A stretch of DNA of 64,000 bases from Flectonema sp. DT1601. Taxonomy: Eukaryota. Made by a program: the position numbers and the translations under genes. The stretch lies in assembly GCA_964019425.1 (NCBI GenBank), contig OZ025804.1, positions 1,116,001 through 1,180,000 on the forward strand, given 5' to 3'. The notes under the pieces were generated by a model. It worked only from the letters and a program-made list of their open reading frames with translations, was not told the origin of the DNA and did no database searches. This document shows positions 54,393 to 63,295 of this stretch, one piece after another. Position 1 is the stretch's first letter; each line of letters opens with the position of its first letter.

Positions 54393-55712
54393 ATGTCAAG
54401 CGATGAATTGAAGCTTGTTATGGAGCTTGCCCAGGCTGTTGCGGAGAAGGAGAAGTCGGTGTTGAAGCAGGAGATCAAGGAGTGGCAGGGAGAACTGAGG
54501 GAGGCTGAGCTTAAACTAAGGAATGCGAAACTAGCTCGTGCTTCGGAAATATTTGGGGTATTCAAACCTGAAGATCTTCAAGTTAAGTCTCTGATCAAGG
54601 TGGACCTAAGTGAAAGTGAGCAAATAGCCTTGAACCTTGACAATAGCATCGGAGAACTTGAAGGAGAAGTTGTACAGTTGAAGGAGAACATCGCAGACGC
54701 CAGGGCACGACTGGTCACTTTGACACAGGGGAGTACAGTGTCGGCACAATTGGAAGGACTTCATCTCAGCTCGCCTGGAAGTCGAAAGCGATTTGCAGAA
54801 GGAGAGCTCCCGAATAACGATGTGAAAATGTCAGCATCGCCTGGCCGGGATCGTGATGGCTGGAAAGTTGACTTCTTGATTCCAAACGGGGCATCCATGA
54901 TTGGTTTGCGGAAATCGATGTTTAGGCTTGCCGAAAGTCATTTGGCTACAGAACCATTGGACATTAGTTACCAAACAAAACAGAACGAGGCAATTACGAA
55001 GAGCACATCTATGCGAGTGATGTTGCATTTTAGGACTGAGGGGAAAGCAAGCAGGATGTTAGTCGATACAAGGAACATGCTAGAAAGATCGTACAGAGCT
55101 GACCTTCCATTAAACTTTGAGGTTCGAAGTTCATCTAAAAAGCTTGGCTCTCAAGTTTTTGCAAGCCGCTATGAGCAGCCTCTCTCTCCTGACCGTGCAA
55201 GCTGGAATGATGTAATAGAACCGGAGCCTTCTGATACAACTGCCGAAGGTACATCGAGGCTTACCATCGAAGAAATCGAAAAGGAAACACCAATAAATCC
55301 GAAAATGTTCGGAGAAGGTGTAGCCAGAGCAGAATGGGCGCATATTAAGGAATGGTCTAAGGATAATTGCACCCACCAAGAAGGCGCAGATCCAAGCAAT
55401 AGATTGATTTTGGATCCAATTCACCATCAGTTGTATGATGCTCGCGGGGGAGGGAATGTCTGTGGTGTTACATTCTTTATGGATGATAGTGATCACAACA
55501 CAAGAGAACAGACTACCTTACACGTTTTGTATGCCAATGCCAATGCAGCGTATTACTCAGGAAGCCTTCGCAATGCAACTTACAAGAGCACCAATCACTA
55601 TACTGTTCAAATCCAGCACCCTGAACCTCAAGAACTCCACGGATACTTGAATGCACGACACAACAGGAATATTAGTGAGAACGAAAACTTCAGTAGCTAC
55701 CTTCCTAATTAG
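54393..55712 (+). CDS. Crinkler-like HNH nuclease effector, copy 1 (439 aa)
   Basis: Coiled-coil N-terminus; GLRKSMFRLA...HFRTE; AEWAHI...DPSNRLILDPIHHQLYD (HNH-type H..N..H..D). Confidence 0.75.
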   Translation: MSSDELKLVMELAQAVAEKEKSVLKQEIKEWQGELREAELKLRNAKLARASEIFGVFKPEDLQVKSLIKVDLSESEQIALNLDNSIGELEGEVVQLKENIADARARLVTLTQGSTVSAQLEGLHLSSPGSRKRFAEGELPNNDVKMSASPGRDRDGWKVDFLIPNGASMIGLRKSMFRLAESHLATEPLDISYQTKQNEAITKSTSMRVMLHFRTEGKASRMLVDTRNMLERSYRADLPLNFEVRSSSKKLGSQVFASRYEQPLSPDRASWNDVIEPEPSDTTAEGTSRLTIEEIEKETPINPKMFGEGVARAEWAHIKEWSKDNCTHQEGADPSNRLILDPIHHQLYDARGGGNVCGVTFFMDDSDHNTREQTTLHVLYANANAAYYSGSLRNATYKSTNHYTVQIQHPEPQELHGYLNARHNRNISENENFSSYLPN

Positions 55713-57217
55713 TAGATTAAAAACCTAAACAGCAAAGCTTACCATCGAAGATATTGTATGGTAAAGGGATTTTTTAAGTCTTGTACATGCTAAAAACCGT
55801 TTATCCTCATTTTTCTAGTACAGGATAAAGAAGGAAGTGAAGTGATGGTAATGAGGCAAGGAATAAAGTGTTTTTCTTAAAAAAAAATAAAAATAAAGTA
55901 AGTAACATGGGGGAAACTTCCCTGTGTAATCTTCAAAAAAATAAAAAAAAAATAAAAAAAGGGGTTCCACTTCCCCACTAATCAAAAAAAAACAAACAAA
56001 TACATAAATAAAAAACAACAACCAAAAATAAAAATAATAATAATAATAACAAACAAAAAAAAAATAAATAGCAGGGGGACCTCCCTGTGAAAAAAAATAA
56101 AAAAAAAATACAAAAAAAGGGTTCCACTTCCCTAATAATTGATGTGCCTCAAAACGTTTGTTGATGTTGTTCAGATTATTGTATTCTTTCTACAGGTTCA
56201 GTTAAATGAAACGTCAAAATAACACTCGCGTGGGTGGTGGAAAGCATAACTTTAGACCCGTCAATTCGCGGCGCTTATATTTACGCACATCAATTTGTTG
56301 AACAAGTTCAAGTCACTTCCCTGCATAGCAGATCCGTGTCCTCTGTACTAACGCTATACTAAGTGTGACTGTGACTGATGCACGTAATGGTTGGGTTCTT
56401 TAAGTACTCAGGACTACCAAACCTGCTTGCTGATGTGAATGCTGACGTTCGAACTGCCCCGACTTTCGAGTAATTTTCCTTTCCGGCTTAGGATGACGCA
56501 GCGTGGTGGGTGCCTTGGGATTTAATAAATAAAGCGGAAATAAAGGGGCTTTCCCGGATGACATCATGTTGGAGAAGTCGCAGTCGAAGTTCGTGAATCT
56601 CTTCTCCAGGGGGAGGCATTTTAATACCAGTGTTCTACATCGCACAGAGCTATTTCAGGATAACGAAAACTATTCGCGACAACATATCTGTACTAATATT
56701 ATTTAATGTAAACTCACAAGGAGCGTACACAATTGTTCAGAAGTGTTGGATAGGATCTGCAGAAGTCGCAGTTCAACGAGATGTTCAGCCGCTTGAAAGA
56801 TGCACCGTTTGGCTTTATCGTAAGCTTGGAAGATAATTTTGTTAAATTAAGTTAGATGTTCTTATATAAAGGCCGACACCCAGCATAAATTCTAACAATG
56901 TCATAACAGGTACGAATGTGAAAATAACGAATGGTGCTCCAACGAAAGCAGATGTAATGTGTAAAGCGATGTGTATGGTGAAGGGTTTCTTTAAGAGTTG
57001 CACTTGTTAAGAGTGGCAGGCATTCTTGAGAATACCAATGGCAATTTCTCCTGCTGAATCGGACCTTGAGAACACAATTGCGTTGTGCTGTTAGTGCTGA
57101 TAATCCCGAGTGCATTACAGAGAGAGATGGGATGAAGGAATATGAATGATGCCTTGTTGTTTAATGAGAAATGCTTAATCCGCGATCCACTATTTTTTCC
57201 TCTTCCAGCCGAACAAC

Positions 57218-61146: not shown

Positions 61147-62086
61147 TAGATTAAAAACCTAAACAGCAAAGCTTACCATCGAAGATATTGTATGGTAAAG
61201 GGATTTTTTAAGTCTTGTACATGCTAAAAACCGTTTATCCTCGTTTTTCTCTTTTCGAGTACAGGATAAAGAAAGAAGTGAAGTGATGGTAATGAGGCAA
61301 GGAATAAAGTGTTTACACGTTATCTTAAAAAAAAATAAAAATAAAGTAAGTAACATGGGGGAAACTCCCTGTGTAATCTTCAAGAAAATAAAAAAAAATA
61401 AAAAAAAGGGTTCCACTTCCCCACTAATCAAAAAAAACCCGCAAACCTGCAAACCCTAACAACAATATGGGAATCTCCCGGGATCGGCCGCAGTTTACTA
61501 TCTTATCATGTTTACCGTCTTATCATTTTATATAGTGCTGTGCGATTGATTCGTTATGCCTATCTGCCTTTATCCAGGCAATTTTGCATCCTTTAAATAA
61601 ATTTCTTTTAAATGGTAGCCGGGCCGTCGCCGACCGCCATTACTTGGTCACCCTCACCCCTTCTTAAGTACTTCCTTTCTTAGTCTTATTTCTTTAGCAA
61701 CAGCAATTACAAACATCGGAGATTAGATGTTCTTATATAAAGGCCGACACCCAGTATAAATTCTAACAATGTCATAACAGGTACGAATGTGAAAATAACG
61801 AATGGTGCTCCAACGAAAGCAGATGTAATGTGTAAAGCGATGTGTATGGTGAAGGGTTTCTTTAAGAGTTGCACTTGTTAAGAGTGGCAGGCATTCTTGA
61901 GAATACCAATGGCAATTTCTCCTGCTGAATCGGACCCTGAGAACACAATTGCGTTGTGCTGTTAGTGCTGATAATCCCGAGTGCATTCCAGAGAGATGGG
62001 ATGAAGGAATATGAATGATGCCTTGTTGTTTAATGAGAAATGCTTAATCCGCGATCCACTATTTTTTCCTCTTCCAGCCGAACAAC

Positions 62087-63295
62087 ATGTCAGACGATGA
62101 ATTGAAGCTTGTTAGGGGGTTCGAGGGAATTGCGGAGAAGGGGAAGTTGAGAATCGAGGAAGAGATTGAGAAGTGGCAGGTGGAACTCATTGATGTCCAA
62201 TTGAAGGATGGAACATACCAAGGCATCTCAGATGCAAGACAGGCGCTGCGTATTGATCAACTAATGGAGAACATCGCAGACGCCAGGGCACGACTGGTCA
62301 CTTTGACACAGGGGAGTACAGTGTCGGCACAATTGGAAGGACTTCATCTCAGCTCGTCTGGAAGTCGAAAGCGATTTGCAGAAGGAGAGCTCCCGAATAA
62401 CGATGTGAAAATGTCAGCATCGCCTGGCTGGGATCGTGTTGGCTGGAAAATTGACTTCTTGATTCCAAACGGGGCATCCATGATTGGTTTGCGTAAATCG
62501 ATGTTTAGGCTTGCCGAAAGTCATTTGGCTACAGAACCATTGTACATTAGTTACCAAACAGAACAGAACGAGGCAATTACGAAGAGCACATCTATGCGAG
62601 TGATGTTGCATTTTAGGACTGAGGGGAAAGCAAGCAGGATGTTAGTCGATACAAGGAACATGCTAGAAAGATCGTACAGAGCTGACCTTCCATTAAACTT
62701 TGAGGTTCGAAGTTCATCTAAAAAGCTTGGCTCTCAAGTTTTTGCAAGCCGCTATGAGCAGCCTCTCTCTCCTGACCGTGCAAGCTGGAATGATGTAATA
62801 GAACCGGAGCCTTCTGATACAACTGCCGAAGGTACATCGAGGCTTACCATCGAAGAAATCGAAAAGGAAACACCAATAAATCCGAAAATGTTCGGAGAAG
62901 GTGTAGCCAGAGCAGAATGGGCGCATATTAAGGAATGGTCTAAGGATAATTGCACCCACCAAGAAGGCGCAGATCCAAGCAATAGATTGATTTTGGATCC
63001 AATTCACCATCAGTTGTATGATGCTCGCGGGGGAGGGAATGTCTGTGGTGTTACATTCTTTATGGATGATAGTGATCACAACACAAGAGAACAGACTACC
63101 TTACACGTTTTGTATGCCAATGCCAATGCAGCGTATTACTCAGGAAGCCTTCGCAATGCAACTTACAAGAGCACCAATCACTATACTGTTCAAATCCAGC
63201 ACCCTGAACCTCAAGAACTCCACGGATACTTGAATGCACGACACAACAGGAATATTAGTGAGAACGAAAACTTCAGTAGCTACCTTCCTAATTAG
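62087..63295 (+). CDS. Crinkler-like HNH nuclease effector, copy 4 (402 aa)
   Basis: Third N-terminal variant with the conserved C-terminus; no upstream ATPase relic. Confidence 0.75.
   Translation: MSDDELKLVRGFEGIAEKGKLRIEEEIEKWQVELIDVQLKDGTYQGISDARQALRIDQLMENIADARARLVTLTQGSTVSAQLEGLHLSSSGSRKRFAEGELPNNDVKMSASPGWDRVGWKIDFLIPNGASMIGLRKSMFRLAESHLATEPLYISYQTEQNEAITKSTSMRVMLHFRTEGKASRMLVDTRNMLERSYRADLPLNFEVRSSSKKLGSQVFASRYEQPLSPDRASWNDVIEPEPSDTTAEGTSRLTIEEIEKETPINPKMFGEGVARAEWAHIKEWSKDNCTHQEGADPSNRLILDPIHHQLYDARGGGNVCGVTFFMDDSDHNTREQTTLHVLYANANAAYYSGSLRNATYKSTNHYTVQIQHPEPQELHGYLNARHNRNISENENFSSYLPN

Follow-up and report, generated by a model that had tools for sequence, protein, structure and literature searches.

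In Phytophthora sojae, near-identical C-termini joined to different N-termini have been reported for 35% of Crinkler (CRN) genes and the reverse pattern for 32%, with fragments of 40 to 303 bp exchanged at a conserved junction motif (PMC3726527). The wider CR (Crinkler/RHS) class was surveyed by Zhang et al. in 2016, as summarized in section 11 of a review (PMC5289972), and the table of another paper lists CR-HNH proteins as group 38, with the Pfam family HNH_2 (PMC5714182). The same paper describes HNH nucleases by a catalytic His that ends strand 1, an Asn in the loop and a metal-binding His or Asn in the helix. CRN13 of Aphanomyces euteiches and Batrachochytrium dendrobatidis carries an HNH-like motif and damages host DNA (PMC5289972, PMC5053185). 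In Podospora, the Spok proteins combine a PD-(D/E)XK nuclease with an N-terminal coiled coil that contains a repeat of variable length, and gene conversion occurs between their homologues (PMC6660238). The review presents the role of the CR header, and the retention of such nucleases in free-living eukaryotes, as open questions (PMC5289972).

A window of 64,000 nt from Flectonema sp. DT1601 (contig OZ025804.1) was found to contain a tandem head-to-tail array of four intact ORFs, all on the plus strand. The array consists of four near-identical 2.7-kb units bounded by A-rich direct repeats (Table 1). The units were 98 to 99% identical to one another in a self-BLAST comparison, and the spacers between copies showed 5 differences in 1,505 nt. 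From ENIADAR to the stop codon, all four copies had 343 codons, with 1 to 19 pairwise DNA differences per 1,029 nt and a protein identity of 96.2 to 99.7%, in line with the almost identical C-terminal part of ∼345 aa described in an initial annotation of this DNA. The 36 additional residues ascribed there to copy 1 lie in the block from WQxEL to ENIA, which is 62 aa long in that copy, compared with 26 aa in each of copies 2 to 4. The polypyrimidine tract and AG before each ATG could serve as a trans- or cis-splice acceptor, by analogy with euglenozoan splicing. Antisense ORFs of 86 to 98 aa recurred in every unit and were treated as probable shadows of the genes.

Table 1. Positions of the array features within the window
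Feature	Position	Strand	Basis or remark
Direct repeat R, A-rich, left end of array	53123-53273	+	Self-BLAST: 94% over 154 nt to 63525-63677
Polypyrimidine tract and AG, copy 1	54370-54383	+	9 nt upstream of ATG
Copy 1, 439 aa: segment A1, long tip B3, constant part	54393-55712	+	
Tip block B3, 62 aa, copy 1	54498-54683	+	
Internal copies of repeat R	About 55948, 58665 and 61394 (last one shortened)	+	Motif positions
Polypyrimidine tract and AG, other copies	57195, 59912, 62064	+	9 nt upstream of each ATG
Copy 2, 403 aa: A2, tip B1, constant part with converted patch	57218-58429	+	
A2 tract, copy 2	57264-57296	+	Differs from copy 3 at 11 positions out of 33, 0 synonymous
Tip block B1, 26 aa, copy 2	57323-57400	+	Same as copy 3 block 60040-60117
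14-nt patch with 10 substitutions, copy 2 C-terminus	57748-57761	+	Putative gene-conversion tract
Copy 3, 403 aa: A1, B1	59935-61146	+	
Predicted alpha/beta domain, copy 3 residues 120-211	60292-60567	+	Model; ferredoxin-like by weak fold matches
HNH (His-Me finger) domain, copy 3 residues 256-400	60700-61134	+	Pfam, model, fold search
H281 codon, copy 3	60775-60777	+	N300, H309 and D313 also in HNH domain
Sequence unrelated to usual upstream spacer, before copy 4	61438-61722	+	Self-BLAST matches end at 61437 and restart at 61723
Copy 4, 402 aa: A3, tip B2	62087-63295	+	
Tip block B2, copy 4	62189-62266	+	
Terminal repeat R, right end of array	63525-63677	+	Self-BLAST

Near the array lie nested repeats spanning 23 kb, together with transposase-like pieces and a fragment of LSU rDNA. 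The rDNA fragment lies ∼600 nt upstream of the array and is a single instance. An rDNA- or tRNA-targeted element was considered but not adopted, as only one LSU fragment was present and no junction fell at the expected R2 insertion site; no tRNA was detected by ARAGORN or Rfam. Within the window, a scan of three regions for Helitron or TIR boundaries yielded no convincing inverted ends, and the candidate hairpin at 63685-63745, found in a search for a Helitron 3' hairpin and CTRR, had a z score of +0.86.

The headers had been described in the initial annotation as shuffled, and this was upheld by switch points, permutation analysis of clustering, block recombination and four-gamete failures. 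Copy 3 was identical to copy 1 at 10 of the 11 variable sites in +46 to +78 and to copy 2 at -483, -131 and -87 and from +98 onward, and the block from WQxEL to ENIA was exactly alike in copies 2 and 3, as anticipated by the description of copy 3 as having the start of copy 1 and the block of copy 2. The corresponding block of copy 4 was unlike those of copies 1, 2 and 3 and hence represents the third header type proposed for this copy. Divergence from about residue 10 had also been suggested; this held for copy 4 but not for copies 1 to 3, which were identical through residue 15. Comparison of copies 2 and 3 detected 30 differences in 2,582 nt, with 11 of these located within 33 nt and 10 within 14 nt, and neither cluster was matched by chance (0 of 100,000 permutations for each). 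Mosaicism was thus also present in the C-terminus, where the 14-nt patch of copy 2 (0 of 200,000 permutations) encodes a peptide that recurs in four relatives (P0002, P0003, P0005 and P0013). Among nine close HNH paralogues, 60 of 105 informative site pairs failed the four-gamete test, a count that is inflated by linked sites. The exchange tracts ranged from 14 to 186 nt, each with two switch points, and all four ORFs and every swap were in frame. The same header blocks were seen, differently combined, on contigs of at least six other lengths. The proposal that copy 3 was the recombinant was dropped, since the data leave the direction of exchange unfixed; the base type may instead be represented by copy 3, in which case outside sequences would have converted copies 1 and 2.

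The header was predicted to form a helical hairpin (copy 3 residues 3 to 75, with helices at 3 to 43 and 50 to 75), and on this model it would comprise a segment A and a tip block B that can be swapped separately, with the variable block situated at the tip of the hairpin. Five tip types (B1 to B5) were present among the fetched proteins, and the pairings found included A1-B1, A1-B3, A2-B1 and A2-like-B3. Comparison of B1 and B2 over 26 codons gave a pS of 0.92, which is near synonymous saturation, and a pN of 0.42, while pS in the C-terminus of the copies did not exceed 0.018; near-saturated blocks inside such similar flanks point to gene conversion of old cassettes. B1 was identical to the header of a Flectonema neradi transcript at 13 of 26 positions and to the neighboring B2 at 9 of 26. 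The B types had a pN below pS. Segments A1 and A2 were separated by 10 to 11 nonsynonymous and 0 to 1 synonymous changes, and positive selection on segment A was not significant, 10 to 11 changes being too few to tell. A full-length VIA fold search returned generic helical hairpins only (Z ≤ 9.9) and was uninformative on the header, a homodimer prediction for the header gave a score of 0.02 (mark, 0.32), which speaks neither for nor against a dimer, and PADLOC and NCBIfam searches gave weak coiled-coil-type matches only. A motif scan detected neither LxLFLAK nor HVLV in any of the four copies. No signal peptide was found, the maximum 19-residue hydropathy across the first 40 windows being 0.45, and a short basic RKR motif follows the header.

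The HNH identity proposed for the C-terminus in the initial annotation was supported by a profile match, by fold matches and by conserved residues. Pfam HNH_2 was matched in all four copies (E values of 8e-4 to 1.4e-3), with scores of 18.9 to 19.7 against a cut-off of 21; of the 25 relatives that were aligned, 8 matched this family too. The domain model had a pLDDT of 86 and contained the beta-beta-alpha elements (E54-57, E77-80 and H82-89). In a VIA fold search, the best match was VcaM4I (Z of 7.9, rmsd of 4.1, 124 residues aligned), followed by TagI (Z of 7.8), values below 8 that may reflect a common arrangement only; ranks 3 to 10 were all Cas9 HNH domains (Z of 3.6 to 4.0), so that the top 10 were all HNH nucleases. 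Foldseek on this domain gave a best E value of 0.054. The catalytic set was present in all four copies and was retained across the 25 relatives (H281 in 24, N300 in 24, H309 in 23 and D313 in 22). The prediction for the C-terminus is an HNH nuclease fold whose catalytic set is intact. Full-length Foldseek detected no match at an E value of ≤0.001, with weak ferredoxin-like matches for residues 120 to 211 (best E of 0.005), and a PDB sequence search returned no matches at an E value of ≤10. In the C-terminus of the array copies, pN was about equal to pS. As the spacers are equally homogeneous, the constancy of the C-terminus is attributable to homogenization of the whole 2.7-kb unit, and both a "constant toxin," as first annotated, and a toxin conserved by selection were discarded.

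All named relatives were diplonemids, namely, F. neradi, D. ambulator and D. japonicum, from transcripts, and D. papillatum (DIPPA_50233). A B1-like block was transcribed in F. neradi; a sequence-database search detected no transcript with ≥90% identity to the array copies. The N-termini of 17 HNH-core relatives included only one similar pair, and one was a SAM domain (P0027; E of 4e-6). The C-terminus also varied among the fetched relatives, with the same headers being borne by REase-like domains: B1, B3 and B4 were each present on both HNH and REase-like C-termini, with B3 itself on the REase-like P0021 and a B3 variant on P0008, P0009, P0018 and P0020. The REase-like label derives from a motif-like PD...E in the alignment, a candidate for the PD-(D/E)xK pattern, and from a lead in the Atlas, where 22% of members were HSDR_N (score of 0.87); the C-termini of P0009 and P0021 had no Pfam match. 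Seven of eight REase-like cluster members, P0008 and one HNH fragment were all located on one or more contigs of 178,086 nt. The 95 to 99% identity of the ENA proteins suggests that they come from the same genome as the array. Searches for related loci produced 602 pattern matches in metagenome contigs and 2 in viral contigs, none of which was confirmed.

Overall, we consider it more likely than not that this locus is a diplonemid CR array of four predicted hairpin-header and HNH-nuclease genes. Gene conversion involving related loci has probably swapped their header segments, which would determine the binding target or the trigger of the nuclease. Unequal crossing-over would homogenize the unit, and conversion tracts whose two ends fall within the conserved codons for WQxEL and ENIA would bring in old tip cassettes from a dispersed pool common to the REase-like genes. 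As to function, we tentatively propose a cytosolic or nuclear conflict nuclease, not secreted by a signal peptide, that acts against intracellular parasites or rival cells and uses the tip as a partner-recognition surface, a proposal with somewhat less than an even chance. A bolder and rather unlikely version is a combinatorial recognition repertoire of diplonemids, in which a small set of ancient hairpin-tip cassettes, older than the species splits and kept by balancing selection, would be passed by gene conversion, at a fixed pair of junctions, to three or more types of nuclease, giving a germline three-part (A × B × nuclease) immune-like system against giant viruses, endosymbionts or non-self cells. 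Since the four natural proteins encoded here carry different headers on nearly the same nuclease, header function could be tested by comparing natural variants, in a group where a relative is present in the model species D. papillatum. If the tips are recognition surfaces, an abundant marine lineage would have an undescribed system of defense or of self/non-self discrimination; if they are not, the array would simply show that recombination of the CRN type extends to one more taxon.

Alternative origins of the variable headers were weighed against these data. Assembly or library chimeras among collapsed repeats could in principle produce mosaics from units that are 98 to 99% identical, but this is highly improbable, as every one of the short tracts has two switch points, contigs of at least six other lengths carry these blocks in different combinations, the divergent blocks must come from some real gene, and the 664-kb source contig resolves repeats that are 99.86% identical. 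Neutral turnover of a nuclease gene that came from a mobile element and multiplied among repeats, with functionless mosaics as a by-product of ectopic recombination, would account for spacers as homogeneous as the gene, for a C-terminal pN about equal to pS, for the surrounding repeats, rDNA fragment and transposase-like pieces, and for gene model P0006, which joins a transposase-like piece to a header and HNH domain. However, the reading frame is kept in the four ORFs and in all swaps, pN is below pS among the B types although their divergence is near saturation, F. neradi transcribes a B1-like block, the catalytic residues are retained over 25 relatives, and no terminal inverted repeats were found in the three scanned regions, making this explanation quite unlikely.

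A selfish toxin-antidote or drive family resembling Spok, in which the nuclease would harm cells without a matching copy and the coiled-coil header would confer self/non-self specificity, appears unlikely. Such a family would fit the coiled coil, nuclease, gene conversion and proposed N-terminal specificity role of Spok (PMC6660238), the description of a CRN-like selfish gene in free-living eukaryotes (PMC12957317), and array proteins with a helical header, no signal peptide, and adjoining repeats and transposase-like pieces. Nevertheless, the 403-aa protein has no kinase or other antidote domain, and several header types in one array would need separate protection. The initial annotation named these proteins effectors, but a secreted or injected effector acting on prey or hosts, with a header that varies for entry into different target cells, is very doubtful. 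The precedent is CRN13 of oomycetes and chytrids, with its HNH-like motif and damage to host DNA, and CR headers are described as generally lacking true signal peptides (PMC5289972); the basic RKR motif after the header would also fit, but LxLFLAK, HVLV and a hydrophobic stretch are all absent.

Compared with described systems, the array proteins share with the CR class, as the sources cited above present it, a helical header joined to a nuclease C-terminus (HNH or REase), an HNH_2 match, the absence of a signal peptide, occurrence in free-living eukaryotes and head-to-tail copies near transposons. The class is defined by a Ubl or alpha-helical header joined to an enzymatic C-terminus, often REase or HNH, to which the predicted helical hairpin and HNH domain conform. 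It is also defined by recombination that places one header on several C-termini and one C-terminus behind several headers; this is seen in B1, B3 and B4 and in the 17 N-termini, if the ENA proteins are indeed of the same genome. The array proteins differ from the class in their diplonemid lineage and in a hairpin header that is itself divided into two parts, each of them swappable, with five or more types of tip. Sequence searches with the array proteins retrieved no named CRN, and Atlas neighbors of the HNH domain were fungal and chytrid HNH_2 clusters (0.84 to 0.85), a lead only. No pairing of diplonemids with Crinklers was found in the literature, and Zhang et al. may itself list similar headers or euglenozoan CR-HNH proteins. 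With the oomycete CRN13 and its chytrid counterpart, the array would share an HNH-like motif in a multipart C-terminus and N-termini that differ among organisms; CRN13 proteins are pathogen effectors that damage host-cell DNA, whereas the array proteins are predicted nucleases. The likeness to Spok, drawn from its description, lies in a variable-length N-terminal coiled coil, a nuclease and gene conversion between paralogues, but Spok combines PD-(D/E)XK and a kinase antidote domain in one protein (PMC6660238), while Pfam and the model gave an HNH domain and no kinase here. The closest solved folds of the C-terminal domain, VcaM4I and TagI (PDB 6yex and 6ghs), are modification-dependent HNH restriction endonucleases that differ in being prokaryotic and share 13 to 17% identity; neither the hairpin nor the ferredoxin-like domain matched these structures in full-length Foldseek or VIA searches. 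With the CRNs of P. sojae, the array shares varied N-termini on near-identical C-termini, so that the constant toxin and variable header of the initial annotation match a pattern already on record (PMC3726527). Those proteins have an LxLFLAK or ubiquitin-like header and an HVLVVVP junction, whereas all four array copies lack both motifs, have headers predicted to be all helical and are joined at WQxEL and ENIA. The mix-and-match design of header and nuclease is thus already known from Crinkler-type proteins, and the array, as far as can be judged from its sequence, would add a new lineage and a variant of it.

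The four genes lay head to tail, each in a unit of about 2.7 kb, with copies of an A-rich direct repeat as unit boundaries. As proposed in the initial annotation, their C-terminal parts were almost identical, the region from ENIADAR to the stop comprising 343 codons in all four copies with 1 to 19 pairwise differences per 1029 nt. The header differences that it described were also recovered. Segment A ended at a WQxEL motif, and block B, the stretch from WQxEL to ENIA, was longer in copy 1 (62 aa) than in copies 2 to 4 (26 aa). Copy 4 was distinct in both A and B and represents a third header type, while B was identical in copies 2 and 3. 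Copy 3, described as a copy-1 start on a copy-2 block, matched copy 1 at 10 of 11 variable sites within +46 to +78 and copy 2 at -483, -131 and -87 and from +98 onward. Units 2 and 3 had 30 differences per 2582 nt, of which 11 fell inside 33 nt and 10 inside 14 nt; either cluster was matched in 0 of 100,000 permutations. The spacers upstream of copies 2 and 3 had 5 differences per 1505 nt, and nonsynonymous (pN) and synonymous (pS) differences were about equal in the C-terminal 343 codons (e.g., 0.020 versus 0.018 for copies 2 and 4), so that the constant C-terminus is no evidence of selection. Over its full length the unit is either recent or homogenised, and the islands of deep divergence inside it are what needs explanation. 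A polypyrimidine tract plus AG, presumably a splice acceptor, was located 9 nt upstream of each ATG; this start codon was supported by P0037, a transcript-derived Flectonema neradi protein beginning at the corresponding Met.

Positions of the gene copies and surrounding features
Feature	Position	Strand	Remarks
Copy 1	54393-55712	+	intact gene; A1+B3
Copy 2	57218-58429	+	intact gene; A2+B1
Copy 3	59935-61146	+	intact gene; A1+B1
Copy 4	62087-63295	+	intact gene; A3+B2
A-rich direct repeats	53123 to 63677		span of all repeat copies
Segment A, copy 1	54393-54482
LSU rRNA fragment, isolated	52137-52523	+	~600 nt upstream of array; Rfam RF02543 scores 113.5 bits over 52293-52523 and aligns well from ~52137
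Perfect 43-nt tandem dimer	52771-52856		between rDNA fragment and array
tRNA-like stretch	52940-53015	-	T-loop-like hairpin; just upstream of array
Nested repeats	29019-52017		23 kb; include a ~257-bp satellite
Repeat pair	34191-39264, 42437-47510		5074 nt at 99.86%
Transposase-like pieces	32085-32576, 36082-36312, 44328-44558	-
Run-out of copy 3	61437-61460		opens with 11-mer
Run-out of copy 4	63685-63745	-	opens with identical 11-mer; CTAG plus GC-rich stretch, Helitron-end-like
~291-bp tandem repeat	11194-13278		yields repeated minus-strand ORFs
ORF with Cys-rich tail	27618-28595	-	adjoins repeat region
Ordinary single-strand genes	1555-23880	-	CCCH zinc finger, SPFH/Band 7, methyltransferase-like, SNF symporter (split over two ORFs)

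The divergence of the blocks was compared with that of their flanks. Between B1 and B2, pS was 0.92 and pN was 0.42 (26 codons), versus a pS of ≤0.018 in the flanks, and B1 was identical to an F. neradi block at 13 of 26 residues versus 9 of 26 for B2 of the adjacent copy. Judged by sequence divergence, the tip blocks are old. The lower pN than pS in B points to constraint acting on the individual tip types and not to rapid hypervariation. A1 and A2 differed by 10 to 11 nonsynonymous and 0 to 1 synonymous changes, numbers too small to be tested. All named relatives were diplonemids, namely, transcript-derived proteins of F. neradi (P0007, 64% identical, and P0037), Diplonema ambulator (P0032) and D. 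japonicum (P0041) and D. papillatum DIPPA_50233 (P0043); searches for relatives detected no near-identical transcript. These relatives suggest that the window is itself of diplonemid origin.

The assignment of the C-terminus to the HNH fold was supported by profile, predicted fold and conservation. Pfam HNH_2 matched all four copies (E 8e-4 to 1.4e-3) with scores of 18.9 to 19.7, under the cut-off of 21, and 8 of 25 aligned relatives. Among 1.84 billion representative sequences, a search detected 37 matches. In an alignment of the query and 24 relatives, the predicted catalytic set was conserved (H281, 24/25; N300, 24/25; H309, 23/25; D313, 22/25; copy 3 numbering). The domain modelled alone (pLDDT 86, pTM 0.78) matched VcaM4I best (Z 7.9; 124 residues aligned at rmsd 4.1), followed by TagI (Z 7.8) and, in ranks 3 to 10, Cas9 HNH domains, and the top non-HNH row had a Z of 2.8; the first Foldseek rank was likewise VcaM4I (E 0.054). 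These models indicate a predicted HNH domain. For residues 120 to 211 an alpha/beta domain was predicted, which ferredoxin-like folds matched weakly. In the full-length model, helices 3-43 and 50-75 formed a hairpin whose turn lies inside block B, making B the predicted tip; fold matches to this hairpin were generic only. GC3 was 0.66 to 0.73 in the A segments, 0.62 in B1, 0.43 in the constant part and 0.25 to 0.38 in six neighbouring genes; GC-biased conversion or the choice of Glu/Lys codons could account for the high header values, which come from only ~30 codons.

Five B types were parsed among all fetched proteins, and three occurred on more than one C-terminus. B1 was present on HNH proteins (copies 2 and 3, P0002) and on a second C-terminus unrelated to HNH (P0014, P0015, P0017). 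B3 was found on HNH (copy 1, P0005, P0013), on the second type (P0008, P0009, P0018, P0020) and on a distantly related third type (P0021), and B4 (27 aa) on HNH (P0006) and the second type (P0016). Among the fetched proteins, B2 (copy 4, P0003, P0004) and B5 (P0022) were on HNH only. Headers were doubled in P0008, P0018 and P0044. The second and third C-termini carry a motif resembling that of PD-(D/E)xK restriction-endonuclease folds; an Atlas lead pointed to the same fold but a Pfam search of both gave no match, and hence the label REase-like is provisional. P0008, P0009 and P0014 to P0020 (ENA) were ≥97% identical past the header, some with doubled headers, and 7 of 8 REase-like cluster members, P0008 and an HNH fragment were on contig(s) of equal size (178,086). 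These proteins probably represent a second tandem array with the same headers on the REase-like C-terminus, which is perhaps a better study object than the present one; their sequence identity suggests that the ENA header proteins come from the same genome as the window. In F. neradi, an HNH transcript was assigned to the same Trinity gene (DN10253) as a B1-like header joined to a third-type C-terminus, consistent with header sharing there as well. The 17 N-termini of HNH-core relatives, one a SAM domain, included only one similar pair.

All four combinations A1-B1, A1-B3, A2-B1 and A2-like-B3 were found. The four-gamete test, applied to 9 close HNH paralogues that were 95-99.7% identical past the header, was failed by 60 of 105 informative site pairs, a count inflated by linked sites. 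The 14-nt patch of copy 2 recurred in 4 of 5 outside paralogues, and a 2-residue indel separated all 4 window copies from all 5 outside ones, a pattern expected if copies are homogenised locally and also receive short imports. The proposal of header shuffling was supported by the mosaic of copy 3, the A/B combinations and the blocks shared by several C-termini.

Several features were observed around the array. The LSU rRNA fragment starts just upstream of a conserved site, which we take to be the R2/I-PpoI target. Neither ARAGORN nor Rfam called the tRNA-like stretch (fold z, -1.1), possibly a decayed tRNA or SINE head. The minus-strand pieces have motifs presumed to be DDE/D transposase-like and had no Pfam or NCBIfam match; in gene model P0006, on another contig, a relative of these pieces is linked to a header and HNH gene. 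The Helitron-end-like hairpin folded no better than shuffles (z +0.86). The match of ORF 27618-28595 to OTU-like proteases was weak (E 0.0012) and under the cut-off.

The likeness of the tandem units would be maintained by unequal crossing-over. Gene conversion, its tracts anchored in conserved codons at WQxEL and ENIA, would exchange cassettes in frame between HNH and REase-like loci; the four copies are compatible with exchange in either direction. We tentatively suggest that the tip may be a binding surface directing or triggering an intracellular nuclease that acts against viruses, symbionts or competing cells. A toxin-antidote gene paralleling Spok (PMC6660238) is unlikely; a selfish CRN-like gene has been described (PMC12957317). 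Neutral repeat turnover, in which the mosaics have no function, is likewise unlikely; pN was about equal to pS in the C-terminus and lower than pS in the tip. A secreted effector like CRN13 (PMC5053185) appears improbable, and the hydrophobic signal stretch sought was absent from all four copies. Assembly chimeras are the least likely source of the mosaics, because each tract is short (14 to 186 nt) and has two ends, and the tracts are found again on other contigs in new combinations.

The array proteins can be compared with known Crinkler/RHS-type (CR) proteins. According to a CRN review (PMC5289972) citing Zhang et al. 2016, free-living eukaryotes also have CR proteins, the headers are Ubl or alpha-helical and unrelated to Ubl, true signal peptides are lacking, the C-termini include REase or HNH, and in P. 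infestans the genes lie tail to head near helitrons; CR-HNH is an HNH_2 group in PMC5714182, and a search of the supplement to that paper gave no match. The window protein resembled CR proteins in architecture but differed from canonical oomycete CRNs in its header, and LxLFLAK and HVLV motifs were absent from all four copies. Searches for relatives retrieved no named CRN. A variable header on a constant C-terminus, singled out in the initial annotation, is already in print: in P. sojae, 35% of CRNs combine near-identical C-termini with differing N-termini, and fragments of 40 to 303 bp have been exchanged (PMC3726527). A literature search on diplonemids, Crinklers and CR-HNH found, among the papers listed, no description of the present design, and the supplements of Zhang et al. 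2016 may bear on its novelty. New here are the probable diplonemid lineage for the header and nuclease design, the division of the predicted hairpin header into two swappable parts and a set of at least five tip types, all old, common to several nuclease classes.
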